A DNA stretch of 64,000 nucleotides from Candidatus Latescibacterota bacterium (GTDB lineage: Bacteria > Latescibacterota > UBA2968 > UBA8231). Below, in pieces: positions 29,243 through 54,045 of the stretch; positions within the stretch are counted from its first letter, which is position 1; each line of letters begins with the position of its first letter. Below the pieces are notes generated by a model. It was not told the DNA's origin and ran no database searches. It was given only the letters and a program-made list of their open reading frames with translations. The DNA is taken from the NCBI GenBank assembly GCA_965206595.1, contig OZ242214.1, positions 5,248,001-5,312,000 on the forward strand. The letters are read 5' to 3'. The translations under genes and the position numbers were made by a program.

Positions 29243-31489
29243 ATGGCATTGCTGACTCTCCTCATCGCACTCGCCCTCATCCGGATACCTGACCCTGCCG
29301 GGGCCGACGGCTGGCCCCACTGGAGGGGCCCCGGCCACAACGGCGCTTCCGGCGAGACCGGTCTGGTTTCGGCGTGGTCCCAATCCGGCAGCGGCCAGCT
29401 CTGGAGCGCCGACTTCAGCGGCCGCTCGACTCCCATCCTCATGAACGGCCGCGTCTACGTCATCGGCCGGGTTGGGGAGGGGATCACCGAGCAGGAGCGC
29501 ATCGCCTGCTTCGATGCCGGTACCGGCGCCCTGCTCTGGGAAGACCGCCTCAACATCTTCCACACCACGATCCCGTTCAACCGCGTCGGCTGGGCAAGCC
29601 TCGCCGGCGATCCCGAGACCGGCAACGTCTACGCCCACGGGGTACAGGGGATCTTCAACTGCTACTCCGGCGCCGGCGAGCTGCTGTGGTCGCGGTCGCT
29701 GACCGAGGAGTTCGGCCGCATCTCCGGGTACGGGGGCCGCACCCACACTCCGTTCGTCGACGGCGACCTCGTGGTCATCTCGTTCCTCAACTCGAGCTGG
29801 GGGGACCAGGGGGTGCCCCGGCACCGGTATTTCGCCTTCGACAAGAACAGCGGCGAGGTGGTGTGGGTGTCGACTCCGGGCGGGCGGCCCCTCGACACCA
29901 CCTACTCGACCCCCGTGGCCGCCGAGATCGGCGGGCAGCGGTTGCTGATCGCCGGCAATGCCGACGGGGCCGTCTACGCCCTGCGCGTCGCCACCGGAGA
30001 GAAGGTGTGGGGCTTCCGGCTCAGCAAGCGCGGCATCAACGTCTCCGTCGTAGCCGGCGGCGACAGGGTCTACGTCTCCCACAGCGAAGAGAACGTCGAC
30101 AACACCGAAATGGGCCGTGTCGTCTGCATCGACGCCACCGGCACCGGGGACGTGACCGGCACCGGGGAAATCTGGCGCTTTGACGCCTGTCTGGCCGGCT
30201 ACGCCTCGCCGGCGCTCGGCGACGGCAGGCTGTACGTCGTCGACAACTCCGCCAACCTGCTCTGCCTCGACGCCGGCGACGGAACCCTTCTCTGGGAGCG
30301 CAACATCGGCACCGTCGGCAGGGGCTCCCCCGTGGTCGCCGCCGGCAAGGTCTACGTCACCACCGTCAACGGCAGGTTCGAGATCCTGCAGCCGGGAGAG
30401 GGGGAGTGCCTGCTCCTCGACGAAGAGCTGCTGGCCGCCGAAGGGGGACGGCCGCTCGAGATTTACGGCTCGCCGGCCGTCGCCTGGGGCTGCGTCTACT
30501 TCGCGACCGAAAACGGGCTGTTCTGCCTCGGCGATTCCTACCGCGGGCCTTGGGCCTCCGGCCCGTCCGGCTCTTCGGCAGCGTCGACGGGCGCTCCTGT
30601 TTCGGCGGATAACCAGCCGGCCTCGATTCAGCTCGAGCCCGCGGAAGTCCTGCTCGCTCCGGGAGAGTCGGCGCGCTTCAGGGTCAGCATCTTCGATGCC
30701 GCGGGCAGGCCGCTGGCGGAAGAATCCCTGCTACCGCAGGAAGTGGACTGGCAGCTCGAAGGGCTGGCCGGGGAAATCGAGGCGGAAGATGCGGCAACGG
30801 CTCTCTTCACTGCGGTCCCCGAGGTTTCGCAGACCGGCCTCATTCGCGCGAGCCTCCGTTTCGGGACCGAAGAGAGCGCGGCTCTGGCGGCACTCGTCCG
30901 CGTGCGGGTCGCCGCGGCGCGCGGCTGGAGCGAAGACTTCGAATCCCTGAGCGCTGCCGAAGGGGAGAATGCCGCTCCCTCCCACTGGATCGGGGCGGCG
31001 CGCAAGTTTTTCGTCCGCGAGCTCGACGGCAACAAGGTTCTGGCAAAACCGCTGGCCAAACGCGGTCTGCAGCGCTCCAACGTCTACCTCGGTCCGCCGC
31101 AGATGTCGGGATACACCATCCGGGCGGACATGATGGCCGCCCGGGGGAAGCGCAACCGCCCTGACATGGGGCTGATCGCCAACCGCTACACCCTCGACAT
31201 GATGGGCAACCACCAGCGCCTCCAGATCCGCTCCTGGGCGTCCGACCTGCGCATGGCGAAAACCGTCGACTTCGGGTGGGAACCGGAGGTCTGGTACACC
31301 GTCAGGATGACGGTCGACGTCGAAGCGGACAGGGCGGTCGTAAGGGGCAAAGTCTGGCGCCGCGGCGATGTCGAGCCGAAAGACTGGACGATCGAAGCGG
31401 AGGACCCGCTGCCGAACCGCAACGGCAGTCCAGGGCTCTACGGGTACTCGGCGGCCGAGATCTACTACGACAACGTCCGCGTGTGGTAG
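29243..31489 (+). CDS. Secreted PQQ-like (BamB-type) beta-propeller with Ig-like and C-terminal concanavalin/DUF1080-like domains
   Basis: Signal peptide, WPHWRGP, repeated DA.TG..LW and SP/TP motifs. C-terminus W.PEVWY...GKVW...W...PGLYG...YDN. Confidence 0.85.
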   Translation: MALLTLLIALALIRIPDPAGADGWPHWRGPGHNGASGETGLVSAWSQSGSGQLWSADFSGRSTPILMNGRVYVIGRVGEGITEQERIACFDAGTGALLWEDRLNIFHTTIPFNRVGWASLAGDPETGNVYAHGVQGIFNCYSGAGELLWSRSLTEEFGRISGYGGRTHTPFVDGDLVVISFLNSSWGDQGVPRHRYFAFDKNSGEVVWVSTPGGRPLDTTYSTPVAAEIGGQRLLIAGNADGAVYALRVATGEKVWGFRLSKRGINVSVVAGGDRVYVSHSEENVDNTEMGRVVCIDATGTGDVTGTGEIWRFDACLAGYASPALGDGRLYVVDNSANLLCLDAGDGTLLWERNIGTVGRGSPVVAAGKVYVTTVNGRFEILQPGEGECLLLDEELLAAEGGRPLEIYGSPAVAWGCVYFATENGLFCLGDSYRGPWASGPSGSSAASTGAPVSADNQPASIQLEPAEVLLAPGESARFRVSIFDAAGRPLAEESLLPQEVDWQLEGLAGEIEAEDAATALFTAVPEVSQTGLIRASLRFGTEESAALAALVRVRVAAARGWSEDFESLSAAEGENAAPSHWIGAARKFFVRELDGNKVLAKPLAKRGLQRSNVYLGPPQMSGYTIRADMMAARGKRNRPDMGLIANRYTLDMMGNHQRLQIRSWASDLRMAKTVDFGWEPEVWYTVRMTVDVEADRAVVRGKVWRRGDVEPKDWTIEAEDPLPNRNGSPGLYGYSAAEIYYDNVRVW

Positions 31490-31508
31490 CGGCACGGGGG
31501 AAACAGGA

Positions 31509-32966
31509 ATGAGAGAACTCTTTACAAATCCGCGGTTCCTCGGCGCAGTCCTGGCCGCGATGGCGGCTGCTTCGGCGGCCGCGGTTGTCCCCGCAGGGAC
31601 TACCGAAACCGCGATGTTCGGCTTCACTCCGGATCGCAACATGACGGTGGAAGCGGGTCCCCTGCCGACAGGGTGGAACCCGGAAACCGGGGAGGGGATC
31701 CTGTGGACGGCGCAGCTCGGCTCCCAGACCTACGCCGGCCCCCTGATCCACGGGGGCAAGGTGTTCGTCGGAACCAACAACCAGGCGCTGTACAATGGGA
31801 AACTCACCGGCGACCGCGGCGTCATCGCCGCCTTCGCGCTGGGAGACGGCAGCTTCCTGTGGCAGTCGACGCACACCAAGCTCCCTTCCGGGCGGGTCAA
31901 CGACTGGCCGCAGCAGGGAGTCTGCTCGACCCCGTACGCCGAGGGGGAGCGCCTTTATTACGTCTCCAACCGCTGCGAGGTCGTGGCCGCGGACACCGAG
32001 GGGTTCCGCGACGGCGAGAACGACGGGCCCTACCGGGACGAGGCGGATTCCAGCGACATCGACGGGGACGTCGTGTGGAAGCTCGACATGATCGAGGAGC
32101 TCAACGTCTTCCCGCACAACCTGGCCGTCTGCTCTCCCGTGGCGGCCGGCCACCTGCTGTTCGTTATCACCGGCAACGGCGTCGATGAAGGCCACGTCCA
32201 CATCCCGTCGCCGTTCGCCCCCAGCTTCATCGCCGTCGACAAGAGAACGGGCGAGTTGGCCTGGGAGGACGCCTCCCCGGGGGAGAACATCCTCCACGGC
32301 CAGTGGTCGAACCCGGCTTACGGGGTCATCGCCGGCCGCCCCCAGGTGATCTTCCCCGGCGGCGACGGCTGGGTCTACGCCCTCGACCCGGCGACCGGCG
32401 CGCTGCTCTGGAAGTTCGACTGCAACCCCAAGGAATCGGTCTGGGAGCTGGGGGGCAGGGGGACGCGCAACGCCATCATCTCGACCCCCGTCATCTACGG
32501 GAACCGCGTCATCATCGGCGTCGGCCAGGACCCCGAGCACGGCGAAGGGGTGGGCAACCTGTGGTGCATCGACGCCACCGGAAACGGCGACGTCACCGCC
32601 ACCGCGGCGGTCTGGCACCTCGGGGGCAGGAGCTTTCATCGCACCATGTCGACGGCCGCCGTCGAAGGGGGCCTGGTGTACCTCGCCGACCTCAGCGGCT
32701 TCGTCTACTGCATCGACGCCGAGACCGGTGAGGTGCAGTGGAAGTACGACGCCTTCGCCGCGATCTGGGGGTCCGCCCTGGTCGCCGACGGCAAGGTCTA
32801 CATCGGCGACGAGGACGGCGACGTGGCGATCCTCAAGACCGGGCGCGAGCTCGAGGTGATCGCCGAGATCAACATGGGCAGCTCGGTGTACACCACCCCG
32901 GTCGCCGACTCCGGCATCCTCTACATAGCCAGCCGCAACCGCCTGTTCGCCATCGGTGCGCCGTAG
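31509..32966 (+). CDS. Secreted PQQ-like beta-propeller protein
   Basis: Signal peptide, WTAQLGSQTYAGP and repeated D..TG...W blades. Confidence 0.85.
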   Translation: MRELFTNPRFLGAVLAAMAAASAAAVVPAGTTETAMFGFTPDRNMTVEAGPLPTGWNPETGEGILWTAQLGSQTYAGPLIHGGKVFVGTNNQALYNGKLTGDRGVIAAFALGDGSFLWQSTHTKLPSGRVNDWPQQGVCSTPYAEGERLYYVSNRCEVVAADTEGFRDGENDGPYRDEADSSDIDGDVVWKLDMIEELNVFPHNLAVCSPVAAGHLLFVITGNGVDEGHVHIPSPFAPSFIAVDKRTGELAWEDASPGENILHGQWSNPAYGVIAGRPQVIFPGGDGWVYALDPATGALLWKFDCNPKESVWELGGRGTRNAIISTPVIYGNRVIIGVGQDPEHGEGVGNLWCIDATGNGDVTATAAVWHLGGRSFHRTMSTAAVEGGLVYLADLSGFVYCIDAETGEVQWKYDAFAAIWGSALVADGKVYIGDEDGDVAILKTGRELEVIAEINMGSSVYTTPVADSGILYIASRNRLFAIGAP

Positions 32967-32976: not shown

Positions 32977-34080
32977 ATGAGCGCGACCCCGGCAGAAAAC
33001 CCGCCCGCCTCCCTGGCCGAGAAGGCCGCCGCTGCCCGGGAGCGGCTCGACGCCCACGTGCGCGAGCTGGTGCACTGGCATTTCGGCCCCGATACCGGGT
33101 GTCCCTTCTGGCTCCAGTTCGCCGGACAGCTCGACTTCGACCCCCGCACCGAGATCGGCGGCTACGATGACCTGAAGCTGCTCGGGCACTTCCGCGACGA
33201 GTGGCTGCGCGGCGGGCCGGTGCGCAGGTGGGTGCCCAAGGCATACGCGAACGATCCCGTGTACGTGTTCGAGACCGGCGGCTCGACCGGCCTTCCCAAG
33301 AACCGCATCAACATCCGCGACTTCGAGATCGACTACCGGCAGTTCGGCGAGCGCCTTTCCGAAGAGGGGTTCCCACAGGGCGGCGACTGGCTGATGCTGG
33401 GACCGACGGGACCGCGGCGACTGCGCCTGGCGGTCGAGCGCCTGGCCCAGATGCGCGGCGGCATCTGCTTCTTCGTCGACCTCGACCCCCGCTGGGTCAA
33501 CAACCTGATCCGCCGCCGGGCCCACCAGGAGCTCGAGGCCTACAAGAGCCACGTCGTCGACCAGGGGCTGAAGATCCTGCGCGCCCACGACAGCGTCCGC
33601 TGCCTGTTCACGACCCCGAGGCTGCTCGAGGCGCTGTGCGAGAAGGTCTCGCTCCCAAGGGCCGGGATCACCGGGATCTTCTGCGGCGGCACCGAGATGG
33701 ACGCCCAGTTCCACCGCTTCGCCCGCGAGGAGCTCGTCCCCGGCATCGATTTCGTGCCGACCTACGGCAACACCCTGATGGGCCTGGCGCACTGCCGGCC
33801 CTTCGATCCGGAACAGGGGTACGACATCATCTACCATCCGCCGCACCCGCGCGCCGTTATCGAGCTCGTGGACCGGGAAGACAGCAGCCGTACGGTCGCC
33901 TACGGGGAGACCGGGAGGGCGATGCTGACGACCCTCACCCGGGAGTTCTTCATGCCCCGCTTTCTCGAGCGCGACGAGGGGGAGCGCGCCGAGCCGGTCG
34001 ACGACTACCCGTGGGACGGGGTCGCCAACGTGCGCCTGCTGTCGTCGCTGCAGGAGTCCGTGACCGTAGGGGTGTACTGA
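32977..34080 (+). CDS. EhpF/GriC-like adenylate-forming enzyme (carboxylate reductase component)
   Basis: WHF.P.TG.PFWL, FDP, ETGGSTG.PK, PTGP, GG.CFF.D.DPRWV, H.VDQ, TTP, GGTE, YGE.G, PR..ERD and terminal GVY are collinear with EhpF as I recall it. Confidence 0.8.
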   Translation: MSATPAENPPASLAEKAAAARERLDAHVRELVHWHFGPDTGCPFWLQFAGQLDFDPRTEIGGYDDLKLLGHFRDEWLRGGPVRRWVPKAYANDPVYVFETGGSTGLPKNRINIRDFEIDYRQFGERLSEEGFPQGGDWLMLGPTGPRRLRLAVERLAQMRGGICFFVDLDPRWVNNLIRRRAHQELEAYKSHVVDQGLKILRAHDSVRCLFTTPRLLEALCEKVSLPRAGITGIFCGGTEMDAQFHRFAREELVPGIDFVPTYGNTLMGLAHCRPFDPEQGYDIIYHPPHPRAVIELVDREDSSRTVAYGETGRAMLTTLTREFFMPRFLERDEGERAEPVDDYPWDGVANVRLLSSLQESVTVGVY

Positions 34081-34085: not shown

Positions 34086-35522
34086 ATGGCCGCACCCTGC
34101 CACATCCCGATTCTCAGACAGGGAGAGCCGTACCGCAGCCTGCGCCTGGAAACCCTGCGGCACACAGCCGGGGGCGAGCCGGTCGCCGAGGTCTCCCAGG
34201 CCAACGCCGGCCTCATGGCGCGCGATCTGTCGCGGGCCCACCTCGCGCAGCAGCAGCTGGCAGCGCTGCCGGCGGAAGAGCTGCTGCGGATCTGCCGCCG
34301 CGCCGGCGAGCTGTTCGCTTCCGCCGACCTGCCGCTCGGCGAGCAGGCGCAGTCCTTCGACACCTACGTCGCGCAGCTGTCGGCCACCACCGGACTGCCC
34401 CGGACCCTGTGCCGCAGCAACGCCGCCAAGATCGTCTCCGCCCTCCGACAGATGGCCGAAATCGTCGGCGGACTGACGCGCGACGCCGGGTTCGATATCA
34501 TCGACAGCGGCTGGGGGGAGCAGGGCGCGCGCCCGCTCAGCTACCGGCGCCTGGCCGACGCTCTCGGAGCGGTGCTGCCCAACAATTCCCCCGGGGTGCA
34601 CACCCTGTGGCTGCCTGCGCCGGCTCTGAAGATTCCGGTGGCGCTGAAGCCGGGCGGAAGGGAGCCGTGGACTCCCTTCCGCATCGCCCAGGCCTTCATC
34701 GCCGCCGGCTGTCCCCCGGCCGGCTTCAGCCTCTATCCCGGCGGCCACGACATCGCCGGGGAGCTGCTGCTCCGCTGCGGCCGCTCGCTGCTGTTCGGGG
34801 GAGAGGAGACGGTCGCCCCCTGGGCCGGCGACCCCCGCGTCGAGATACACGGCCCTGGGTGCAGCAAGATCCTGTTCGGCAGCGATGCCGCCGACGACTG
34901 GGAAAGGCATCTGCCGCTGCTGCTCTCCTCGGTCGCCGACAACGGCGGCCGCTCCTGTATCAATGCCTCCGGGGTGTGGGTTCCCGCCCAGGGGCGCGAG
35001 ATCGCCGAGGCCCTGGCCCGGCGCCTGTCCGAGATCGAGCCGCTCCCCCTCGACCACCCCGAGGCCGCCCTCGCCGCCTTCCCGGACCCGGACGCGGCCC
35101 GGCGGATTTCCGACTTCATCGATCAGAGGCTGGAAACTCCCGGGGCCGCCGACCTGACCGCGGCGGTTCGGGGCAACGGCCGCGTCGCCACCGCAGGCGG
35201 GTGCACCTTCCTGCGCCCGACGGTGATCTGGTGCGAGGATCCGGAGCACCCGCTCGCCGACACCGAGTTCCTGTTCCCGTTCGTCGCCGTGGTCGAGGCT
35301 TCCGCGGAAGAGATGGCGGAACGGATCGGCCCTTCCCTCGTCGTCACCGCCGTGACCGAAGACGCGACGCTACGGGCGCAGCTGATGGGCTCTTCCAGGA
35401 TCGACCGCCTCAACTTCGGGGAGGTGCCGACGAACGAGATCTCCTGGGACCAGCCGCACGAGGGAAACCTGTTCGAGCTGCTCTACAGGCAGCGGGCCTT
35501 CACCATGAGGCGGCGCGCCTGA
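34086..35522 (+). CDS. ALDH-fold acyl-adenylate/acyl reductase (GriD/LuxC-like)
   Basis: VLPNNSPG, LKPG..EP, LFGG, HGPG.SK, catalytic NGGRSCINAS and EFLFP motifs. Starts 5 nt after the EhpF-like gene. Confidence 0.82.
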   Translation: MAAPCHIPILRQGEPYRSLRLETLRHTAGGEPVAEVSQANAGLMARDLSRAHLAQQQLAALPAEELLRICRRAGELFASADLPLGEQAQSFDTYVAQLSATTGLPRTLCRSNAAKIVSALRQMAEIVGGLTRDAGFDIIDSGWGEQGARPLSYRRLADALGAVLPNNSPGVHTLWLPAPALKIPVALKPGGREPWTPFRIAQAFIAAGCPPAGFSLYPGGHDIAGELLLRCGRSLLFGGEETVAPWAGDPRVEIHGPGCSKILFGSDAADDWERHLPLLLSSVADNGGRSCINASGVWVPAQGREIAEALARRLSEIEPLPLDHPEAALAAFPDPDAARRISDFIDQRLETPGAADLTAAVRGNGRVATAGGCTFLRPTVIWCEDPEHPLADTEFLFPFVAVVEASAEEMAERIGPSLVVTAVTEDATLRAQLMGSSRIDRLNFGEVPTNEISWDQPHEGNLFELLYRQRAFTMRRRA

Positions 35523-36658
35523 TGCAGGGGTTCGAGTACGAGAGCGTAACCCGCCTGGTGTTCGGCACCGGGGCTCTGGACAGGCTCGGCGGGCTGGCCG
35601 CAGAGCTCGGGGCCGGGCAGGTGCTGGTGGTCACCGACCCCGGCATCGCCGCCGCCGGCATCCTCGACAGGGCGACCGAATCCCTCGCCGCGGCCGGATT
35701 GCAATACGCCGTCTTCGACGGGGTCGAGAAGAATCCTGGCAGCCGCCACGTCGAGACCGGGCGCCGCTTCGCCGAGGAGCTGCCGCGGCCGGCCGACTTC
35801 GTCGTCGCTCTTGGCGGCGGCAGCGCCATGGACTGCGCCAAGGGAATCAACTTCCTGCTGACCAACGGCGGCCGCATCGAGGAGTACCGCGGCGACGGCA
35901 AGGCGAAAAAGCCGCTGCTTCCGGCCATCGGCGTCCCGACCACCGCGGGGACCGGCAGCGAGGCCCAGCGGTTCGCCCTGATCGGGAAAGGGGAGAGCCG
36001 CATGAAGATGGCCATCGGCGACCGCACCGCCCGCTTCCGCGTCGCCCTGCTCGATCCGGAGCTGACCGCGACGGCTCCGCCAGAGGTGGCCGCGGCCGCG
36101 GCCACCGACGCCATTTCGCACGCAGTGGAGAGCTTCGTCAGCGCCAACGGCAACGAGGTCTCGCGGATGTTCGCAGGCCGCGCCTTGCAGCTTCTGGCGG
36201 CCAACCTGCACGAAAGCCTGCGCGCCGGCTCCGTCGAGGCGCGCGCCGGCATGCTGCTCGGAGCCCACTGGGCCGGGGCGGCCATCGAGAACTCGATGCT
36301 GGGGGCCGCCCACGCCTGCGCCAACCCCCTGACGGCCCGCTACGGGATCATCCACGGAGTGGCGGTCGGAGTGATGTTGCCGCACGTGATCCGATTCAAC
36401 GGCGCCTCGGTCGACGGACGCTACACCGAGCTTGCAAGAGCGGCCGGTCTGGAGGGGGCGGGGGCGGAGGCCCTGGCGGAGGGCGTGCGCTGCTGGAACG
36501 CCGAGGCGGACCTGCCTGAACGCCTGCGCGATCTCGACGTCGAAGCGGCCTCCCTGCCGGGCCTCGCGCGCGAGGCCGCGGCGCAGAGAACGGCGCGCTT
36601 CAATCCCCGGCCAGCTGGAGAGCGGGAGCTCGCGGGCCTGTACGAGGCGGCGTTCTGA
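35522..36658 (+). CDS. Iron-containing alcohol dehydrogenase
   Basis: VVTD, GGGSAMDCAK, PTTAGTGSE, DAISHAVES, GAAHACA and HGVAV motifs. TGATG coupling. Confidence 0.92.
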   Translation: MQGFEYESVTRLVFGTGALDRLGGLAAELGAGQVLVVTDPGIAAAGILDRATESLAAAGLQYAVFDGVEKNPGSRHVETGRRFAEELPRPADFVVALGGGSAMDCAKGINFLLTNGGRIEEYRGDGKAKKPLLPAIGVPTTAGTGSEAQRFALIGKGESRMKMAIGDRTARFRVALLDPELTATAPPEVAAAAATDAISHAVESFVSANGNEVSRMFAGRALQLLAANLHESLRAGSVEARAGMLLGAHWAGAAIENSMLGAAHACANPLTARYGIIHGVAVGVMLPHVIRFNGASVDGRYTELARAAGLEGAGAEALAEGVRCWNAEADLPERLRDLDVEAASLPGLAREAAAQRTARFNPRPAGERELAGLYEAAF

Positions 36659-44761: not shown

Positions 44762-44808
44762 TATTTGGAGCTCTCTGAGTTGGATAGTATAGTCGACATC
44801 CTTTCTCT

Positions 44809-46008: not shown

Positions 46009-46236
46009 ATGCGCCTGATCCTCTACATCCTGCTGCTGGTCCTGTACGCCCTCCACAACGATCTCTGGCTGTGGGACGACGGCTCCCTCGTGCTCGGCCT
46101 GCCTGCCGGGTTCCTCTACCACATCGGCTATTGCGTCGCAGCCGCAGGTCTCCTGGTCCTGCTCGTCAACTTCGCCTGGCCCCGGCACCTGTCCGAACCT
46201 GAGGGCGGGGAAGGGCCGGAGGACCCCCGGCCATGA
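46009..46236 (+). CDS. Small 2-TM membrane protein (DUF3311-like), partner of the sodium:solute symporter
   Basis: LH.DLWLW...VLGLP.GF.YH motif. ATGA overlap with the symporter gene. Confidence 0.8.
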   Translation: MRLILYILLLVLYALHNDLWLWDDGSLVLGLPAGFLYHIGYCVAAAGLLVLLVNFAWPRHLSEPEGGEGPEDPRP

Positions 46237-47705
46237 CCATAGGCGTCATCCTCGTTTACCTGTTGCTCGTCCTCTTCGTCGGGGGGCTGAGCCACCGCCT
46301 CTTCCGGGGGACCGGCGAGGACTACTTCGTCGCCAGCCGCACTGTCGGGCCGTTCCTGCTGCTGATGTCGCTGTTCGGCACCAACATGACCGCCTTCGCC
46401 ATCCTTGGGGCCTCGGGCGAAGCCTATCACGAGGGGATCGGGGTGTTCGGGCTGATGGCCTCGGCCTCGGCCCTGGTCATTCCCTGCGTCTTCTTCTTCG
46501 TCGGCACGCGGCTGTGGGCGATCGGCAAGCGCCACGGGTTTCTCACCCAAGTGCAGTACTTCCGCCAGCGTTGGGACAGCGACGGGCTGGGGCTGCTGCT
46601 TTTCGCGGTGCTGATCGCCCTCGTCGTCCCCTACCTGCTGATCGGCGTGATGGGGGGCGGACTGACCCTTCACCAGATCACCAAGGGGCAAGTCCCCGAG
46701 TGGGTCGGGGGGCTGCTGGTCTGCACCGTGGTGATGACCTACGTCTGCTACGGCGGCCTGCGCGGCACCGCCTGGGCAAACGCCTTTCAGACTCTCGTCT
46801 TCATGGTTCTCGGCGGCGTCGCCTTCGCCGTCATCCTCGGGAAACTCGGCGGCCTCGAGGCGGCGATGTCCGCAGTGGCCGCCGCCCATCCCGACCTGAT
46901 GGTCAGGTCGGCGCACATCGAGCCGGCAAAGTGGCTTTCCTACACCTGCATCCCGCTGTCGGTCGGTATGTTCCCGCACATGTTCATGCACTGGCTCACC
47001 GCCCGCAGCGCCAGGACCTTCCGCTACCCGCTGATGTTCTACCCCCTGTGCATCGCCGCGGTCTGGGTTCCGAGCGTGACCCTCGGCATCGCCGGACGCC
47101 TCGACTTTCCCGATCTCGCGGGGCCGGCGGCCAACTCGGTGCTGGTGAAGATGATCGACCTGCACGCCCCCGAGTTGCTGGCCGGGCTGCTGGCCGCCGG
47201 CGTCTTCGCCGCGGTCATGTCCTCCCTCGACTCGCAGGTGCTGTCGATCGGGACCATGTTTACCCAGGACATCGTCCGCCACTACGGCCGCGAGGACAGC
47301 ATGAGCGAGCGCCAGCAGGTGCTCTACGGCCGCCTCTTCGTCTCGGGGGTTCTGGCCGTCACCTTCCTCCTGGCCCAAGTGGCCGACCGCAGCATCTTCA
47401 AGCTCGCGGTCTGGTCGTTCACCGGGTTCGCCTCCCTGTTCCCGGTGGTCCTGGCGGCGCTGTTCTGGCGGCGGAGCACGAAGACGGGCGCCTTCGCCTC
47501 GATCGTCAGCGTCGTCCTGCTCTGGAGCTACTTCTTCGCCCGCGGCTGGGAGACCCCGGGGTACACCGTCGCCGGCAGCGGCGTCATGCCGGTGGCCGTC
47601 ATCCTCGCGGTGTCCGCGGCCGCCATGGTCGCCGGGTCGCTGCTGACGCGTCCGCCCGCGCCAGAGGTGCTGCGGCGCTTCTTCCCGGATGGCGGCGGTT
47701 CGTAG
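46233..47705 (+). CDS. Sodium:solute symporter (SSS) family transporter
   Basis: EDYFVASR, GGLRGTAW...Q and AAVMSSLDSQ motifs; many TM helices. Confidence 0.92.
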   Translation: MTIGVILVYLLLVLFVGGLSHRLFRGTGEDYFVASRTVGPFLLLMSLFGTNMTAFAILGASGEAYHEGIGVFGLMASASALVIPCVFFFVGTRLWAIGKRHGFLTQVQYFRQRWDSDGLGLLLFAVLIALVVPYLLIGVMGGGLTLHQITKGQVPEWVGGLLVCTVVMTYVCYGGLRGTAWANAFQTLVFMVLGGVAFAVILGKLGGLEAAMSAVAAAHPDLMVRSAHIEPAKWLSYTCIPLSVGMFPHMFMHWLTARSARTFRYPLMFYPLCIAAVWVPSVTLGIAGRLDFPDLAGPAANSVLVKMIDLHAPELLAGLLAAGVFAAVMSSLDSQVLSIGTMFTQDIVRHYGREDSMSERQQVLYGRLFVSGVLAVTFLLAQVADRSIFKLAVWSFTGFASLFPVVLAALFWRRSTKTGAFASIVSVVLLWSYFFARGWETPGYTVAGSGVMPVAVILAVSAAAMVAGSLLTRPPAPEVLRRFFPDGGGS

Positions 47706-47741: not shown

Positions 47742-49073
47742 ATGCGCGTAGGCTACATCACCGCCGGGGCCGCGGGCATGTACTGCGGCGCCTGCATCCA
47801 CGACAACACCCTCGCCGCGGCGCTGATGCGCCGGGGGGTCGAGGTCGCCCTGGTGCCGACCTACACCCCGCTGCGCACCGACGAGGTGGACGTCAGCCTG
47901 AAGCAGGTGTTCTACGGTGGCATCGGGGTTTTTCTCGAGCAGAAGCTGCCGCCGTTCAGGCGCATGCCCCGGTTCGTCGACTGGGCCCTCAGGCGTCCCG
48001 CCCTGCTGCAGGGGGTGTCGCGGTTCTCCGCGGCGACGCGGGCCGAGGACCTCGGGGCCCTCACCGTGTCCGTGCTCAAGGGACCGGAGGGCCACCAGCG
48101 ACGCGAGCTCGAACGGCTCCTCGAGTGGCTGCGCACCGATTTCAGGCCGGATATCGTGCTGCTGACCAACAGCCTCTTTCTCGGCCTGGCGGGGAGGCTG
48201 AAGAGCGTCCTCGGGGTCCCGGTGCTGTGCGCGGTGCAGGGGGAGGAGATCTTCCTCGAGGCGCTCGTCGAGCCGTACCGCTCCCAGGCCCTCGGCCTGC
48301 TGCGCGAGCGTGCCGGCGACGCGGACGGTTTCGTCGCCCCCAGCACATACGCCGCCGACTTGATGGCGCAGTACCTCGAGGTCGAGCGCGAGCGCTTCCA
48401 CGTGGTGCCGCTCGGGCTGCACCTCCCCGGACACGGCGCTGGGGAAGCGGCGGCACCCCCTTCCGCGGAGACGCCGTTCACCATCGGGTTCCTGGCGCGG
48501 ATTTGCCCGGACAAGGGGCTGCACGTGCTCGCCGAGGGGTTCGCGCGCCTCGCTGAAGAGAGAGGTACAGAGGCGGTGAGGCTGCTGGCTGCCGGGTGGC
48601 TCGGCGCCGGCGACCGCTCCTACCTGAGGAAGGTCGAGGAAACGCTGCGGCGGGCAGGACTTGCGGCGCGCTTCGAGTACCGGGGGGAGCTGGATCGGAT
48701 GCAGAAGATCCGTTTCCTGCGGGAGCTCCACGTGCTCTCGGTGCCTGCCCCGTTCAAAGAGCCGAAGGGACTCTACGTCCTCGAGGCGCTGGCCAACGGC
48801 GTCCCGGTCGTCCAGCCGGATCACGGCGCTTTTCCGGAGCTGATCGCCGCTACAGGCGGCGGCCTTCTCGCCGCCGGGGCCACGGCGGCAGCGGTCGCGG
48901 CCGGCATCGGGAGGCTGATCGACGACGAGGCCCTGCGGCAGCGGCTCGCCGCCCGCGGTCGGGAGGCGGTTCGCGAGCGTTTCAACGACGACGTCATGGC
49001 CGCCGAGACCCACGCCCTGCTCGAGCGCTTCGTTCCATCCCGCCCGTCCACTTACAAAGAGGAAATCCCATGA
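47742..49073 (+). CDS. Glycosyltransferase family 4 (GT-B)
   Basis: GFLARICPDKGL, EPKGLYVLEALANGVPVV...GAFPE, and an unusual N-terminal MYCGAC motif. Confidence 0.9.
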   Translation: MRVGYITAGAAGMYCGACIHDNTLAAALMRRGVEVALVPTYTPLRTDEVDVSLKQVFYGGIGVFLEQKLPPFRRMPRFVDWALRRPALLQGVSRFSAATRAEDLGALTVSVLKGPEGHQRRELERLLEWLRTDFRPDIVLLTNSLFLGLAGRLKSVLGVPVLCAVQGEEIFLEALVEPYRSQALGLLRERAGDADGFVAPSTYAADLMAQYLEVERERFHVVPLGLHLPGHGAGEAAAPPSAETPFTIGFLARICPDKGLHVLAEGFARLAEERGTEAVRLLAAGWLGAGDRSYLRKVEETLRRAGLAARFEYRGELDRMQKIRFLRELHVLSVPAPFKEPKGLYVLEALANGVPVVQPDHGAFPELIAATGGGLLAAGATAAAVAAGIGRLIDDEALRQRLAARGREAVRERFNDDVMAAETHALLERFVPSRPSTYKEEIP

Positions 49074-49540
49074 CCTGGTTGCTGTTCGCCTTCATCACCG
49101 TGGCCTCCTGGGGGCTGTATGGCCTCCTGCTGCACAGTGGACAGACGGCGATGGCCGATTCCGTCAACGGGCGCTACAAGGCGTTCCTTTTCGTCGGCGT
49201 CGCCTATCTACTGACCGCCGTCCTCGGCTCCCTGCTGGTGCTCAAGATCAACGGCGTCGACTGGGGTTTCCCGGTCAAGGGGGTCGTCTTGTCGATTGTA
49301 GCCGGCACCGCCGGCGCCCTCGGGGCCTTCGGGGTGCTGCTCGCCTTCGGGGCCAAGGGATCGCCGGCGGTGGTGATGGCGATCGTGTTCGCCGGGGCCC
49401 CGGTCGTCAACGCCGTTGCCGCGATGGTCGTGCATCCGCCCGCGGGCGGCCTGGGCGCGCTCAGCTGGCCGTTCCTGCTCGGGATCGCCATGGCCGCAGG
49501 CGGCGGCTGCCTGGTCACCCTGTTCAGGCCGGGTTCGTAG
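49070..49540 (+). CDS. Small multi-TM protein, EamA/DMT-like
   Basis: SWGLYG, about five hydrophobic helices, GA.GA.G and P.VNA. ATGA coupling. Confidence 0.75.
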   Translation: MTWLLFAFITVASWGLYGLLLHSGQTAMADSVNGRYKAFLFVGVAYLLTAVLGSLLVLKINGVDWGFPVKGVVLSIVAGTAGALGAFGVLLAFGAKGSPAVVMAIVFAGAPVVNAVAAMVVHPPAGGLGALSWPFLLGIAMAAGGGCLVTLFRPGS

Positions 49541-49547: not shown

Positions 49548-49970
49548 GTGGCCTCGGAGTTCCGCACCCGGCGCCGCATCGAGTTCGAGGACACCGACGC
49601 GGCCGGCATCGTCCATTTCTCCCGTTTCCACGTGTTCATGGAGCAGGCCGAGCACGCCTTCCTGCGTTCCCTCGGACTCAGCGTGCACATGCATTTCGAA
49701 GGCGATCTGGTGAGCTGGCCGCGAATGGCCTCCTCCTGCGAGTTCTACGCCGCGGCGAGGTTCGAGGAGGTCGTCGAGATCCACCTGCGAGTGGCGCGCA
49801 TGGGTCCCCGGTCGGTGACCTACGCCTGCGATTTCTGGAAGGGGGAGGAAAAGCTGGCGAGCGGCGAGATCTCTTCGGCCTGCTGCATCTGCAACCCGGG
49901 CGAACCGATGCGGTCGATCGAGATCCCGGCCCTCGTCGCCGCGCGGCTCGACGAGGCGCCGCCGCGGTGA
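49548..49970 (+). CDS. Acyl-CoA thioesterase (4-HBA-CoA/YbgC hotdog family)
   Basis: RIEFEDTDAAGIVHFSRF...MEQAE motif. Confidence 0.9.
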   Translation: MASEFRTRRRIEFEDTDAAGIVHFSRFHVFMEQAEHAFLRSLGLSVHMHFEGDLVSWPRMASSCEFYAAARFEEVVEIHLRVARMGPRSVTYACDFWKGEEKLASGEISSACCICNPGEPMRSIEIPALVAARLDEAPPR

Positions 49971-50680
49971 GCCGCGACCGCGATCCCGATCGCGGCGGAG
50001 CCGGGACCTTCCGGCTCGAGGCCCGCGGCCTGCGCAAGCAGTTCGAGCAGGGCGGGCAGTCGCTGCGTGTCCTCGACGGGATCGACCTCAAGTTGGAGGC
50101 GGGCCAGTCCCTGGCGGTTACCGGCCCCTCCGGCTCGGGAAAGAGCACCCTTCTGCACATTCTCGGGACCCTCGACGAGCCGACCGGCGGGGCCGTGGAG
50201 ATCGGCGGCCGCAACCCCTTTGCCCTGGCGGAACCGGAGCTGGCGCGGCTCCGAAACGAGGTGATCGGCTTCGTCTTCCAGGATCACCACCTGCTGCCGC
50301 AGTACTCCGCCCTGGAGAACGTGCTGATCCCCGCACTGGCCTTCGGCAGGCCGGACGCCGCCAGGCAGCGGCGGGCGCGAGAGCTGCTCGAGCGCGTCGG
50401 CCTCGGCGAGCGCGCCGCCCACCGCCGCGCCGCCCTGTCGGGCGGTGAGTGCCAGCGTGTAGCGGTCGCCAGGGCGCTGATAAACGCCCCGCGCCTGCTG
50501 CTGTGCGACGAGCCGACGGGCAACCTCGATCGCGCCGCCGCGGGGGCCGTTGCCGACCTGTTGTTCGCGCTGCACCGGGATGAGGGGAACATCCTGGTAA
50601 TGGTGACGCACAGCGAAGAGCTGGCCGCCCGCTGTGAACGGCGCATCGAGCTGATCCACGGGCGATGCGCCGAACGCTGA
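49967..50680 (+). CDS. ABC transporter ATP-binding protein (LolD/MacB-type)
   Basis: GPSGSGKS, GFVFQ, LSGGECQR, DEPTGNLD and VTH motifs. Confidence 0.95.
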   Translation: MSRDRDPDRGGAGTFRLEARGLRKQFEQGGQSLRVLDGIDLKLEAGQSLAVTGPSGSGKSTLLHILGTLDEPTGGAVEIGGRNPFALAEPELARLRNEVIGFVFQDHHLLPQYSALENVLIPALAFGRPDAARQRRARELLERVGLGERAAHRRAALSGGECQRVAVARALINAPRLLLCDEPTGNLDRAAAGAVADLLFALHRDEGNILVMVTHSEELAARCERRIELIHGRCAER

Positions 50681-53600
50681 CGCATTTCTGGAAGATCAAC
50701 GCCGCGGTTGCCCTCGGCGCCGCGGTGGCGGCCGCGGCGCTGACCGGGGCCCTCCTGGTCGGCGATTCGGTGCGCGCCAGCCTCCGCTCCCTCGTCCTCG
50801 ACCGACTCGGTTCCGTCGATTGCGCCCTCGTGGCGCCCCGGTTTTTCCGCGCCGCGCTCGCCACGGCGTTGTCGATCGACGACGAGAGCGGCGCCGGTGC
50901 CGGGGTGGCGCCGGCCATCCTGCTCGAGGGGGCCGCGACCCACGCGCGTTCCCGGGCCCGCGCCTCGGTGCAGATCCTCGGGGTCGACGGCCGCTTCAAC
51001 GCCTTTTTCGGCGAAGCGGGCAGACTCCCGGCGTTGCACAGGCAGGGCCCCTTTCCGCCGGCGATACTGAACCAGGGGCTGGCCGCAGACCTCGGCGCCG
51101 CAACCGGGGACGCGGTGCTGCTGGCGCTGCCCCGCCGCGCCGAAGTGCCGCGCGCGACGGTGTTCGGGCGCCGATCCTCCGAGGACGTGGTGCAGACCCT
51201 GCGGACGGTCGTCGCCGCGGTCGTGCCGGACCGCGGACCTGGCGGCTTCGGGTTGAATCCCCACCAGGCGGCCCCCTACAACGTCTACCTCGATCTTGGA
51301 GACCTGCAGCGGGAGCTCGATCTCCCCGGAAGGGCGAACTCCCTTCTGGCCAGGTATCCGGGGGTTTCCGGCGGCATCGCCGCCAGGGCCATGCAACGGG
51401 ACTTGAAAACCGCCATCGGTCTGACCGACCTCGGCTTGGTGCTGCGGGAGCTGCCGGGCGGCGGCCTCTTCGCCCTCGAGAGCGAGCAGTTCATCCTCGA
51501 CGACGCGCGCGCCGACCTGGGGGCCGCGGTGGCCTCCGGGCTCGGCATTCCCTGGTTGCCGGTCTTTACCTACCTCGCCAACAGCCTGTCCGCGGGCGGG
51601 CGCTCGCTGCCGTACTCGACCGTCTCTGCGCTCGGCGAGAGCGCCTTCAGCGGCCGTTTCGGGGCGCTGTTCCTGGCCGGGGGCGGGCCGTTTCCGGGCC
51701 TGCGGGAAGGGGAGATCGCCCTCAATGAGTGGGCGGCCGCGGACCTCGCCGTTGCCGCGGGGGATTCCCTGTGCCTGGAGTACTTCGTCGTCGACGAGGG
51801 GGAGCAGTTGTCGGAAAGCTCCGCCCGCCTGCGGGTCGCCGGCGTTCTGCAGATGCGCGGCCTCGCCGAGGACCGCGAGCTGACCCCCCGGTATCCCGGT
51901 ATTCAGGAGGCCGGCGACATGTCGGCGTGGTCGCCGCCGTTTCCGCTCGACCTCGACCGCATCCGGCCCCAGGACGAGGCGTATTGGGACGAGTACGGGA
52001 CGGCGCCGAAAGCGTTCGTCTCCGAGGGGACCGGAAAAAAGCTGTGGGGCAGCCGCCACGGCAGCCTCACAGCCCTGAGGCTGGGCGCCAGGCCGGGGGA
52101 GGAGCCGGCTGCTGCGGCCGCGGACTTCGAGCGCGCCTTCCTCGCCGCGGTGCAGCCGCAGCAGCTGGGCATGAACTTCATCCCGGTGCGCGAGCGCAGC
52201 CTGGAGGCGGCCGAGGGGGCCACCGATTTCGGCGGGCTCTTCATCGGTTTCAGCCTGTTCCTGATCGCCGCCGCGGCGATGCTGATGGGCCTCCTGTTCC
52301 GGCTCGGGGTCGAACAGCGGGTGCGCGAGATGGGGCTCCTGCGCGCCGTGGGCATGCCGTTGGGGCGCGTGCGCCGGCGGTTCCTCGGGGAAGGTCTGGC
52401 GGTCGCCGCCCTCGGCGGACTGCTCGGAACGGCCGGCGCCGTCGCCTACGCCGGGCTGATGATGGCCGGGCTGCGCACCTTGTGGCGCCAGGCCGTCGGC
52501 ACGTCTCACCTATCCCTGACTGTCACCCCCGCTACCCTCTCAATCGGCTACGCCGCCTCGCTGATCGTCGCCGCCGCGGTCGTCGCCTGGACGGTGAGGA
52601 GCCTCGGACGGCTGGCGCCCCGCGCCCTGCTCGCCGGTGAAACCTCCCGGCCTTCGGTGCGCCGCGGAAGGGCCGCGTTCCTGTTCGCGGCTGGGGCGGC
52701 AGTCGCCGCGCTCGCCCTGTCCGCGGCCGGATCGCTTTCCTCCGCCACGACTGCCAGCGGGCTCTTCTTCGCCAGCGGGGCGCTGCTCCTCGCAGCCGGA
52801 GTGGCCGGGTTTGCGAGCTGGCTGAGAGCCGGAGGAAGGGCTGCCTCCGGGATAGTGCCGTCGACCCTCGGGCTGGCGGTCACATCGACGCGGCGCCAGC
52901 CGGGGCGCAGCCTGCTGGCTGCCGGCCTGGTGGCCTGCGCCTGCTTCGCCATCGCCGCGGTGGCGGCCAACCGCCGCGCCGGCCTGCCGGGAGCGGACGC
53001 ACTGGCAAAGGACTCGGGGACCGGAGGTTATGCCGTAAAGGCGAAAACCGACATCCCGGTGTTTGCCGACCTCGGTAGCGACGACGGGCTGATCGACGAG
53101 GGGTTCACCCCGGAGGAGCGAGCCATGTTCGCCGGCTCCCGGATCTTCCGCCTGCGCGGCTCCCCGGGAGAGGACGCGAGCTGCCTCAACCTCTACAAAC
53201 CGGCGCGGCCCACCCTTCTCGGCCTGCCTGCCGGTTTCATCGACCGGGGCGGTTTCCGGTTCGCGCAGGCCGTCCCGGAAGCCGGCTCCAACCCATGGGA
53301 GCTGCTCACGGAAGAACACGAACCCGGGGTGGTGCCGGCGATCGGCGACTACAACTCCGTGCGCTGGATCCTCCATTCCGGCCTCGGGGAGGAGATCCTG
53401 CTTGCGGACGAAGCTGGCGGCGAGCTGAGACTGCGCCTGGTCGGGCTGCTCCAGGGCAGCATTTTCCAGAGCGAGATCCTGGTATCGGAGGAACAGTTCA
53501 AGCGCCGCTTCCCGGGCGCCGAAGGCTACCGCTTTTTCCTGGCCGAGGCGGGAAACCAGGAGCCGGCCGAGACCGCCGCCCTGCTCGAACGGCGCCTGGA

Positions 53601-54045
53601 GACGTACGGCCTGGAGGCGACGGCCACTGCCTCACTGCTGGCGCGCTTCGGGGCGGTCGAGAACACCTACCTGTCGACCTTCCAGACCCTGGGCGGGTTC
53701 GGGCTGTTGCTGGGAACGGTCGGGCTGGCCCTGGTGCTGCTGCGCAACGCCATCGAGCGCAGCGGCGAGCTGGCGGCCTGGCGCGCCTGCGGGTTCAGCT
53801 GCGCGCGCCTGCGGACCATCCTGGTGCTGGAGAATACGTTCCTGCTGCTGGCCGGGGCCGCCATCGGAACGGTTGCCGCCCTCGTCGCCGTCGCACCTCA
53901 TCTGGTCGTGCACCTGAGCGGCGTTCCCTGGGGATCGCTGGCGGCGACGCTGGGGGCGGTGCTGGCTTTCGGGGTTTGCGCCGCCGCGGCCGTTTCGGGG
54001 TTCGTCCTGCGCCAGCCGCTGCTGCCGGCCTTGAAAAGGGAGTAA
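50665..54045 (+). CDS. Large duplicated FtsX/MacB-type ABC permease
   Basis: Two permease modules (EQRVREMGLLRAVG and ERSGELAAWRACGF) with large periplasmic domains; 1126 aa. Confidence 0.9.
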   Translation: MRRTLTHFWKINAAVALGAAVAAAALTGALLVGDSVRASLRSLVLDRLGSVDCALVAPRFFRAALATALSIDDESGAGAGVAPAILLEGAATHARSRARASVQILGVDGRFNAFFGEAGRLPALHRQGPFPPAILNQGLAADLGAATGDAVLLALPRRAEVPRATVFGRRSSEDVVQTLRTVVAAVVPDRGPGGFGLNPHQAAPYNVYLDLGDLQRELDLPGRANSLLARYPGVSGGIAARAMQRDLKTAIGLTDLGLVLRELPGGGLFALESEQFILDDARADLGAAVASGLGIPWLPVFTYLANSLSAGGRSLPYSTVSALGESAFSGRFGALFLAGGGPFPGLREGEIALNEWAAADLAVAAGDSLCLEYFVVDEGEQLSESSARLRVAGVLQMRGLAEDRELTPRYPGIQEAGDMSAWSPPFPLDLDRIRPQDEAYWDEYGTAPKAFVSEGTGKKLWGSRHGSLTALRLGARPGEEPAAAAADFERAFLAAVQPQQLGMNFIPVRERSLEAAEGATDFGGLFIGFSLFLIAAAAMLMGLLFRLGVEQRVREMGLLRAVGMPLGRVRRRFLGEGLAVAALGGLLGTAGAVAYAGLMMAGLRTLWRQAVGTSHLSLTVTPATLSIGYAASLIVAAAVVAWTVRSLGRLAPRALLAGETSRPSVRRGRAAFLFAAGAAVAALALSAAGSLSSATTASGLFFASGALLLAAGVAGFASWLRAGGRAASGIVPSTLGLAVTSTRRQPGRSLLAAGLVACACFAIAAVAANRRAGLPGADALAKDSGTGGYAVKAKTDIPVFADLGSDDGLIDEGFTPEERAMFAGSRIFRLRGSPGEDASCLNLYKPARPTLLGLPAGFIDRGGFRFAQAVPEAGSNPWELLTEEHEPGVVPAIGDYNSVRWILHSGLGEEILLADEAGGELRLRLVGLLQGSIFQSEILVSEEQFKRRFPGAEGYRFFLAEAGNQEPAETAALLERRLETYGLEATATASLLARFGAVENTYLSTFQTLGGFGLLLGTVGLALVLLRNAIERSGELAAWRACGFSCARLRTILVLENTFLLLAGAAIGTVAALVAVAPHLVVHLSGVPWGSLAATLGAVLAFGVCAAAAVSGFVLRQPLLPALKRE

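Follow-up and report, generated by a model that had tools for sequence, protein, structure and literature searches.

EhpF/EhpG of Pantoea agglomerans, from the pathway of the phenazine D-alanylgriseoluteic acid, and GriC/GriD of Streptomyces griseus, from the pathway of grixazone, are two-protein carboxylic acid reductases in which an adenylating protein of about 360 amino acids (aa) is encoded beside a partner of about 460–480 aa with the aldehyde dehydrogenase (ALDH) fold. According to the available part of PMC10179220, which cites Suzuki et al. 2007, GriC forms the acyl-AMP of 3-amino-4-hydroxybenzoate (3,4-AHBA) and GriD reduces it to the aldehyde; a table of PMC11278526 lists EhpG, with a gene of 1371 bp, under the aldehyde dehydrogenase family, next to ehpF, an AMP-binding gene of 1062 bp. 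A pair of the same arrangement, g03 and g04, lies in the gene cluster that is the subject here, at positions 29243–54045 of a 64,000-nucleotide (nt) stretch of a Candidatus Latescibacterota bacterium genome (assembly GCA_965206595.1, contig OZ242214.1, positions 5,248,001 to 5,312,000 of the forward strand), called the window below. Like EhpF and GriC, g03 is an adenylating protein without the usual C-terminal ANL domain. Unlike the genes of the ehp and gri clusters, g03 and g04 sit among exported propellers, a flavin-dependent halogenase, a glycosyltransferase of family 4 (GT4) and an ATP-binding cassette (ABC) transporter, and the pair is conserved at 54–78% across phyla; no phenazine or 3,4-AHBA scaffold gene (phz, griI/griH type) appears among the Pfam and NCBIfam matches of the 19 open reading frames (ORFs) of the cluster.

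Other components of the cluster also have described relatives. The carrier-dependent halogenases PltA, CndH, Mpy16 and Bmp2 share with the halogenase g10 the FAD motifs, the catalytic Lys and the WxWxIP motif, at 156–189 bits; unlike theirs, the cluster of g10 has no carrier protein and has a coupled CoA ligase. YbbAP-TesA, which extracts hydrophobic compounds from the inner membrane according to the part of PMC12646458 that is available, and the type VII (MacB-like) ABC transporters resemble the pair g18/g19 in combining a LolD/YbbA-like ATPase with a double-FtsX permease, and here too a thioesterase gene lies directly upstream. As far as YbbAP-TesA is described there, the differences are that the periplasmic domains of g19 match no family and that g17 is a cytoplasmic hot-dog protein, not a periplasmic SGNH hydrolase. 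BamB (YfgL) has the eight-bladed fold of the g02 model and superposes on it; unlike BamB, the exported propellers g01, g02 and g06 have no lipobox Cys and are larger, the first of them (P1) carries extra domains, and their context is enzymatic instead of that of the beta-barrel assembly machinery.

For the combination as a whole, the literature searches found one relevant paper, the preprint of Loureiro et al. (bioRxiv 10.64898/2026.08.03.742642), and no paper on a halogenase together with a phenylacetate-CoA ligase, a thioesterase and a glycosyltransferase. In its available part, the preprint reports a screen of sponge metagenomes, by a custom rule, for a flavin halogenase plus an AMP-binding protein (the "Halo_AMP pseudoclass"), which gave 840 clusters in 267 families, with Latescibacterota holding 9%, Poribacteria 8% and Acidobacteriota 16% of the families. 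PQQ-like domains (PQQ, pyrroloquinoline quinone) are frequent in these clusters, radical S-adenosylmethionine (SAM), glycosyltransferase, thioesterase, TonB and ABC genes occur, BagE, BrtI and Bmp2 are common best matches, and no relative was found in MIBiG; small brominated peptidic products are proposed there, and no function is assigned in that part of the text. The window's cluster falls under the Halo_AMP definition as given there, with g09 and g10 overlapping by 8 nt and g03 lying 8.4 kb upstream, and the Halo_AMP set very probably includes the present architecture. The case that the available text treats in detail (CC A) has cytochrome P450s, unlike the present cluster, and the EhpF/EhpG reductase pair, the co-inheritance and the scattered forms reported below are not described in that text. 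A preliminary description of the window, made from its sequence, had mentioned similar arrays without an assigned function; going by the same text, the lack of a function stands, and the cluster kind itself has now been noted. It had also suggested that rule-based finders of biosynthetic gene clusters might miss or under-call the locus, and the standard rules indeed do not name this type, the sole paper having used a rule of its own.

Gene Content and Conservation as One Unit

According to the ORF listing and its translations, the interval 29243–54045 contains 19 co-directional ORFs on the + strand, of which 17 are host-like, as the preliminary description had stated, and the remaining two (g11 and g12) belong to a strain-specific insertion of low GC content. 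The 17 host genes form, with high confidence, one conserved functional module; it is built from known kinds of enzyme and has been noted but left unexplained in the one preprint, in so far as its text is available. The genes are as follows.

29243–31489, + strand: g01, exported propeller P1, 748 aa; PQQ_2, signal peptide, beta-sandwich C-terminus
31509–32966, + strand: g02, exported propeller P2, 485 aa; Pfam PQQ_2 (1.1e-27)
32977–34080, + strand: g03, EhpF/GriC-like adenylating subunit, 367 aa; match to EhpF in the PDB, weak AMP-binding Pfam match
34086–35522, + strand: g04, EhpG/GriD-like ALDH-fold reductase subunit, 478 aa; Pfam Aldedh (1.2e-15)
35522–36658, + strand: g05, iron-containing alcohol dehydrogenase (Fe-ADH), 378 aa; Pfam Fe-ADH (1.5e-45), ADH_Fe_C (2e-36)
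36658–37791, + strand: g06, exported propeller P3, 377 aa; Beta-prop_ACSF4 (1.1e-55), PQQ_2 (4.8e-41)
37788–39140, + strand: g07, HemN-like radical SAM enzyme, 450 aa; Radical_SAM (2.1e-20), HemN_C
39124–41217, + strand: g08, TonB-dependent receptor, 697 aa, variable member; Pfam Plug and TonB barrel
41214–42503, + strand: g09, PaaK-like aryl/acyl-CoA (or ester- or amide-forming) ligase, 429 aa; AMP-binding_C_2 (6.5e-19)
42496–43749, + strand: g10, flavin-dependent halogenase of the PltA/CndH/Bmp2 type by its sequence, 417 aa; Pfam Trp_halogenase
43909–44742, + strand: g11, Mrr-type restriction endonuclease, not part of the pathway; Mrr_cat (6.9e-26), Mrr_N
44886–45950, + strand: g12, transposase ORF of the ISKra4 family, not part of the pathway; NCBIfam ISKra4 at 82 bits against a cut-off of 205
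46009–46236, + strand: g13, DUF3311-like small membrane partner of the symporter, 75 aa, variable; DUF3311 (8.9e-07; 29.3 bits against a cut-off of 30)
46233–47705, + strand: g14, sodium:solute symporter, 490 aa, variable; Pfam SSF (2.3e-41)
47742–49073, + strand: g15, GT4 glycosyltransferase, 443 aa; Glycos_transf_1, Glyco_transf_4
49070–49540, + strand: g16, half-size membrane protein like those of the drug/metabolite transporter (DMT)/EamA group, 156 aa; named from its relatives, no Pfam match
49548–49970, + strand: g17, hot-dog (4HBT, YbgC-like) thioesterase, 140 aa; 4HBT (5.1e-09), NCBIfam YbgC/FadM at 61 bits against 68.7
49967–50680, + strand: g18, LolD/YbbA-like ABC ATPase, 237 aa; ABC_tran, NCBIfam LolD and YbbA below their cut-offs
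50665–54045, + strand: g19, giant permease with two FtsX and two large periplasmic domains, 1126 aa; Pfam FtsX in two stretches

The family names that the preliminary description had given agree with Pfam, with g13 just under its cut-off and g16, which has no Pfam match, named by way of its relatives. Ten related genomes, which belong to four families of the window's class, were compared over 36 kb around each g03 orthologue: g03–g07, g09–g10 and g15–g19 stand in the window's order in seven (G001, G016, G010, G004, G030, G032 and G040), with occasional insertions, and G012, G019 and G025 have only a partial cluster within that stretch. The same order is kept on one contig of the phylum KSB1; since it recurs in other families and phyla, the arrangement is far beyond chance. 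The flanking genes are conserved solely in the two nearest of the ten, G001 and G016, and the conserved block therefore has the boundaries that had been drawn for the cluster from the sequence.

The phyletic sample comprised 41 relatives, G000 included. The genes g02, g03 and g16 and the first periplasmic domain of g19 were each found in the identical 29 of the 41; g07 is also present in 29, its set differing from that of g03 in G003 (86% complete) and G005 (81% complete), and g10 is present in 27, not being found in G003 and G013 (84% complete). All six tested genes are absent from 11 relatives, and at the level of genera the split is 14 of 22. A small cytoplasmic propeller of 235 aa, whose gene separates g03 from g04 in 8 of the 11 loci of Poribacteria type that were examined (e.g., L040:11679–12380), was tried as a further member of the cluster and dropped, as its distribution in the 41 relatives does not track the cluster, and it was used as the control. 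It has a weak Vgb_lyase match (29 bits) and a 61% identical homologue in the window's own genome (C1:1136539–1137240; L118:8537–9241, - strand), and it occurs in 28 of the 41 relatives but in another set: it turned up in seven genomes that lack the cluster and was not found in seven that have it. Since the control differs in this way, the shared presence and absence of the cluster genes is not merely a matter of assembly quality; as the relatives are kin, the pattern is no statistical test.

The genes are also retained where the cluster has come apart. In G012, G025 and G029 they are dispersed over the chromosome, and every gene tested is still present: G012 has the blocks g02–g04, g05–g07 with a fourth propeller (P4), and g08–g10, g15–g17 and g18–g19 in three to four places, and G025 has three blocks (g01–g09; g10 with g15–g17; g18–g19). 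In four Poribacteria-titled genomes the parts are dispersed to differing degrees, in two of them hundreds of kb to Mb apart, and g07, g10, g15, g16 and the g19 domain were found in all five genomes tested (these four and one of KSB1). Moreover, among the best 80 of 191 loci in a species-representative collection, searched within 10 kb on either side of g03, g01 was found near g03 in 73, g02 in 73, g04 in 68, g06 in 36, g05 in 28 and g07 in 18. From the split genomes and these counts, five stable sub-blocks can be drawn: P1-P2-reductase; alcohol dehydrogenase-P3-radical SAM(-P4); (receptor-)ligase-halogenase; GT4-DMT-thioesterase; and ATPase-permease. Candidates for shared extra cluster genes, namely transposases, an AAA_21 plus DUF3226 pair, transglutaminase-like proteins and GFO oxidoreductases, were rejected, not being common to the relatives.

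In short, the genes of the cluster are inherited, lost and retained as a set, and they are probably co-expressed. The preliminary description of a single cluster without a nonribosomal peptide synthetase or polyketide synthase core is supported by the synteny, by the co-occurrence in the 41 relatives and by the family scans; whether the genes fail to co-occur in other genomes was examined, and they do co-occur.

Gene Coupling, the Inserted Segment and Transcription

TGATG is present at 35520–35524 and 36656–36660, ATGA at 37788, 46233 and 49070, and GTGA at 41214 and 49967, which are all the coupling sites previously read from the sequence. With the start codons chosen in this analysis, on which the counts depend, 10 of the 18 junctions overlap and five more have gaps of 5–36 nt; the three widest gaps (58–159 nt) border the inserted g11 and g12. 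A filter based on third-position GC content recovered most of the 19 ORFs and showed the high value of the host.

The segment 43750–46008 is a low-GC insertion consisting of the Mrr-type endonuclease gene and one element of about 1.13 kb of the ISKra4 family; it divides g10 from g13, so that the run of 17 genes, listed in the preliminary description without these two ORFs, is not unbroken; all 17 host ORFs are intact. Its GC content is 0.567 against 0.66–0.72 around it, the sole GC dip of the region, and none of the 10 related loci has a counterpart of g11 or g12. The insertion sequence (44801–45933) has three further copies in the same genome at 97–98.5% identity, and two DNA runs show a roughly fivefold contig depth over it. 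The junction of g10 with the Mrr gene is bridged by a DNA contig of another run (43140–44838), which shows that the insertion is no assembly artefact. At the same g10/g13 junction, the sister genome G001 has a different insert of 1.6 kb, and G016, G010 and G004 have 54–83 nt; this junction is probably a boundary between transcription units.

Of 24 sequencing runs listed, 20 contain part of the stretch, and one of these (share 0.05), labelled sponge metagenome, is registered as an RNA run. Its contigs of 220–290 nt lie on g01, g02 (2 differences in 290), g07 (3 in 232 and 10 in 255), g08 and g15; they are weakly suggestive, being compatible with transcription of a near-identical strain and possibly also with carry-over of DNA. 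The other supposed RNA run (X22) gave fragments of 18–57 nt only.

Outside the conserved block, co-directional genes for an ABC ATPase and a membrane protein, named by sequence, follow g19 (54094–55886) and are kept only in G001 and G016. Upstream, a 433-aa ORF (25757–27058), which by its sequence looks like a methyltransferase of the cyclopropane-fatty-acyl-phospholipid-synthase type, had no match seen in the syntenic loci.

The Reductase Pair and the Alcohol Dehydrogenase

The protein g03 matches EhpF in the PDB (3L2K/3HGU) at an E value of 2.7e-43 over residues 24–357 of 367, and in the PDB sequence search the EhpF entries are its sole relatives among solved structures; a search of the ESM Atlas returned generic AMP-binding clusters only. 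The ANL P-loop T100–G105, P107 and K108 are invariant in 23 sequences. Orthologues are 70–98% identical in the 29 relatives and 73–78% identical in records titled Poribacteria and KSB1. The gap between g03 and g04 is 5 nt. In g04, Cys291 is invariant in 23 orthologues and falls on the ALDH nucleophile in a profile alignment with KauB, and where hydrolytic ALDHs have their general-base Glu there is the invariant His255, a replacement that would fit an enzyme that must not hydrolyse its thioester.

In a structural model of the complex, g03 and g04 gave interface scores (ipSAE) of 0.76, 0.76 and 0.74, and the highest of three controls scored 0.00. Of 80 solved complexes, 58 attain the mark used for ipSAE, as do 2 of 110 mismatched pairs; these counts apply only roughly because the present model was built on its own alignments. 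Between runs, at least 79% of the contacts agree, the predicted local distance difference test score (pLDDT) of the partners is at least 90, and the interface, with many invariant residues, is formed by g03 residues 181–187, 215–222 and 242–253 and g04 residues 18–20 and 38–49. We know of no comparable solved complex. The prediction supports the binding of g03 and g04 to each other. By homology, then, the two are assigned to the EhpF/EhpG (GriC/GriD) type of two-protein carboxylic acid reductase, the pair that had been named from the sequence, with the EhpF match, the Aldedh domain and the invariant Cys291 in agreement. A fatty-acid reductase of the LuxE/LuxC kind was rejected for g03/g04, there being no LuxE/LuxC Pfam match at an E value of 0.01 and EhpF being the sole PDB relative.

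In two Poribacteria loci, L038 (11353–13101) and L045 (same position), a thiamine-diphosphate enzyme of 582 aa is encoded between the g03 and g04 orthologues, which could provide a route to the aldehyde from a 2-oxo acid. In NCBIfam, g05 scores best with ErcA, reaching 274.9 bits where the cut-off is 550. ErcA is an alcohol dehydrogenase-like regulator of the PQQ-dependent ethanol oxidation system; the resemblance, far below the threshold, echoes the PQQ-fold propellers of the cluster.

Halogenase, Ligase and Other Tailoring Enzymes

The motifs that define a flavin-dependent halogenase are GxGxxG, a catalytic Lys, WxWxIP and a second FAD motif. In its alignments g10 retains GGGPAG, the Lys of FPRK (corresponding to PIK in CndH and PKK in PltA), WFWYIP and GDAFGFIDPIYSSG; in the PDB it scores 206.9 bits with 8ZOP ("Halogenase"), 188.7 with PltA, 181.9 with CndH, 175 with Mpy16 and 156 with Bmp2. 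The family motifs are stated in part in the available text of PMC6644159, and the literature search on 8ZOP found nothing. Judged by its sequence, g10 has every hallmark of a flavin-dependent halogenase, and what had been listed as a WxWxIP flavoenzyme is, by motifs and PDB matches, genuinely of the halogenase type. Besides overlapping in the window, g09 and g10 are neighbours wherever both were located by the tblastn scans.

The NCBIfam matches of g09 are PaaK (233.7 bits), FlxY (147.5) and BagE/FevW (92.6), all below the cut-offs. For g07 they are HutW (180.9 bits, cut-off 400), hemN (170.6, cut-off 324.95) and STM4012 (170.1, below the cut-off), and in the PDB g07 matches HemN 1OLT at 122 bits over its full length and the methyltransferase NocN 9P2U at 108 bits over the radical SAM core. 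It has CxxxCxxC, with Phe at the position of the fourth Cys of HemN. A true HemN was therefore rejected, on the score below the curated hemN cut-off and on this Phe. The glycosyltransferase g15 is 52–58% identical in all five Poribacteria and KSB1 genomes, always with g16 adjoining.

Exported Propellers

The propellers g01, g02 and g06 each begin with an N-terminal hydrophobic signal sequence. In g01, Pfam finds PQQ_2 at 2.3e-30, and the orthologues in relatives are 54–62% identical. Its C-terminal 309 aa, modelled at a pLDDT of 82.9, have no Pfam match up to an E value of 5, and in Foldseek they gave weak matches to immunoglobulin-like domains plus lectin/carbohydrate-binding-module sandwiches, with template modelling (TM) scores of 0.35–0.62. 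The most conserved propeller is g02, with a mean column identity of 80% over 23 orthologues and invariant loops rich in Asp, Glu and His, which are the least confidently modelled parts; its model (pLDDT 79, predicted TM score 0.85) is eight-bladed and most like BamB, at a TMt of about 0.8; PQQ dehydrogenases score far lower. The curated BamB model gave at best 148 bits, with g06, against a cut-off of 285.2. When the cluster splits, g06 remains beside g05 and g07. A fourth propeller follows g07 in G004, G025, G032 and G040 and has no counterpart in the window's cluster; three unlinked homologues of it, about 50% identical, lie elsewhere in the same genome (C1 near 5980347, 3967347 and 5612147).

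Membrane Transport

The clusters of G016 and G004 have no receptor gene g08, and those of G032 and G040 have neither g13 nor g14; where present, g14 is 72–79% identical. With receptor and symporter variable, import is the weakest part of the pathway that the preliminary description had outlined. A search with g16 found no Pfam match up to an E value of 5; the source name of its relatives is DMT-like permease, and one of them carries PF00892 (EamA). In one Poribacteria genome (G042:C1:3694931–3696420), three tandem copies of g16, 72%, 48% and 51% identical to that of the window, stand directly after the GT4 orthologue.

The ATPase g18 matches LolD at 243.9 bits, YbbA at 226 and the heterocyst protein DevA at 156.6 in NCBIfam, all below the cut-offs. 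For the two periplasmic domains of g19, Pfam gave nothing usable up to an E value of 5, and against YbbP and MacB structures no sequence match went beyond one FtsX segment.

Distribution and Phylogeny

By their record titles, the best 80 loci comprise 5 of Latescibacterota, 71 of Poribacteria, 2 of Gemmatimonadetes/Gemmatimonadaceae and 1 of KSB1, which bears out, for Latescibacterota, Poribacteria and KSB1, the recurrence in little-studied phyla that had been expected. Gemmatimonadetes as a further phylum was rejected, because g03+g04 of L085 is nearly identical to that of the Latescibacterota genome G019 (branches of 0.06); the record title of L085 (uncultured Gemmatimonadaceae) and the taxonomy of its genome probably disagree. 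In the protein database g03 has over 8000 matches and g16 has 6660, the best 120 in each case being mostly without names, and the module is 40–78% identical at the protein level in the Poribacteria and KSB1 genomes compared. In a tree of g03+g04 (23 rows), whose inner branches are short, Latescibacterota are not grouped, and the well-supported branches force at least three changes; the mixture of phyla in the tree and the patchy genera would fit old transfers and repeated loss.

Proposed Route and Alternative Explanations

According to the reading tentatively preferred here, which is plausible but falls short of being probable, the module tailors a carboxylic acid, which is probably aromatic and electron-rich, into a halogenated, carbon-modified and glycosylated alcohol or aldehyde that goes to the cell envelope and is handled by the periplasmic propellers. 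First of all, g03 would adenylate the acid, and the acyl group would pass to Cys291 of g04 within the g03–g04 complex and be reduced with NAD(P)H to the aldehyde, which g05 may turn into the alcohol. The PaaK-like g09 would activate another carboxylate, belonging to this molecule or to a different one, as a CoA thioester, ester or amide; the adjacent g10 would halogenate the ring, g17 could release or proof-read the product, and g07 may methylate or otherwise modify a carbon. Then g15 would glycosylate the new hydroxyl, the half-size g16 and the double-FtsX transporter g18/g19 would move the product from the cytoplasm or the inner membrane, and the three exported propellers, P1 with its lectin-like domain, would bind or process it in the periplasm, with g08 and g14 as optional feeders. 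The order of the steps, that the acid is aromatic, that halogenation and methylation take place in vivo and that the product reaches the propellers are all inferred.

Several points weigh against this tailoring route. No protein of the 19 reaches a curated NCBIfam cut-off, and no enzyme that forms the substrate is among the Pfam and NCBIfam matches of the 19 ORFs. The closest solved halogenases mostly act on carrier-bound substrates, no PP-binding domain was found in any of the 19 ORFs, and the intergenic gaps between conserved genes are at most 36 nt; given the missing carrier and the coupled ligase g09, a CoA-bound or free substrate of g10 seems likelier. Only two EhpF-type reductases are characterised, both acting on aromatic acids, and they do not fix the specificity of g03/g04; the calibration behind the complex model is, as said, rough. 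Promoter scans gave 2 and 1 promoter-like sites and terminator scans 8 and 13 terminator-like sites, none exceeding shuffles, and the operon structure is therefore drawn from gene spacing alone. In addition, a sequence conservation of 60–80% across phyla is unusual for a secondary-metabolite pathway, and the interleaving of exported propellers with cytoplasmic enzymes is unexplained.

An unlikely explanation, which follows the logic of a polysaccharide utilisation locus, is that of uptake and conversion, catabolic or detoxifying: the receptor and the propellers would capture an external aromatic compound, the symporter would import it, and the CoA ligase, thioesterase, ALDH and alcohol dehydrogenase would convert it. 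The TonB receptor and the symporter with its DUF3311 partner in the cluster, the export of the propellers, the lectin-like domain of P1 and the lack of a scaffold-forming enzyme among the family matches would suit such a locus, but the receptor and the symporter are dispensable members, and no ring-cleavage enzyme, beta-oxidation enzyme or regulator is found among the family matches of the 19 ORFs. Moreover, the halogenase with intact motifs, the GT4 and the exporter-type ABC transporter are anabolic features, and g04 is without the Glu required for the acid-forming chemistry of ALDHs.

That a fatty or other lipid acid is converted to a lipid alcohol, receives a sugar and is drawn out of the inner membrane by the ABC transporter as a halogenated glycolipid, by analogy with heterocyst glycolipids and bartolosides, is distinctly unlikely. 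The g03 protein is related to EhpF and no LuxE/LuxC Pfam match was found, the halogenase falls in the phenol/pyrrole-type group, and the cluster has no acyl carrier and no fatty-acid enzymes. On the other side stand the score of g18 with the heterocyst DevA model, which is below the cut-off, and the double-FtsX architecture shared with YbbAP, for which the available part of PMC12646458 describes the extraction of hydrophobic compounds.

It is very improbable that the cytoplasmic enzymes make or alter a small cofactor, for instance a modified quinone, that is exported into three or four PQQ-fold propellers as the real effectors; the more specific form, in which a reduced, halogenated, methylated and glycosylated aromatic-acid prosthetic group or ligand is exported by the ABC transporter to load the periplasmic propellers, is just as improbable. 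The propellers are strictly co-inherited with the enzymes, and the high conservation of g02 with its invariant acidic and His loops, low in confidence in the model, would agree with a ligand. The natural substrate of EhpF is a tricyclic N-heteroaromatic dicarboxylate, which also counts on this side, and the window's genome has no PqqC match and no PqqE match over the cut-off, the PqqC control having matched in none of the control genomes either. However, the closest fold is BamB, which has no cofactor, direct evidence of a ligand is lacking, and to our knowledge neither a glycosyltransferase nor a halogenase is known from cofactor pathways.

Finally, that several unrelated operons merely lie side by side is hardly credible and close to refuted: the sub-blocks do separate in some genomes and a mobile insertion lies between g10 and g13, but four genes have identical and two nearly identical presence and absence in the 41 relatives, unlike the control, and the order is conserved across families and in KSB1.

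Biological Significance

A set of about 13 fixed and 4 optional genes is thus kept complete in Latescibacterota, Poribacteria and KSB1. For carboxylic acid reductases of the EhpF/EhpG type, which have been little studied, the cluster is a third context and much the most widespread one, and it poses the question of why exported propellers of the BamB fold are genetically locked to cytoplasmic tailoring enzymes. If the enzymes served a cofactor instead, it would be a new cofactor system common to several uncultured phyla. Since close relatives differ sharply in having or lacking the cluster, they form natural plus/minus pairs that comparative metabolomics could use. Sponge symbiont communities have long posed the puzzle of orphan brominated compounds, and if the tailoring route proposed here is true, a halogenated aryl glycoside, bound to the envelope or secreted, would be widespread in phyla that include dominant sponge symbionts.

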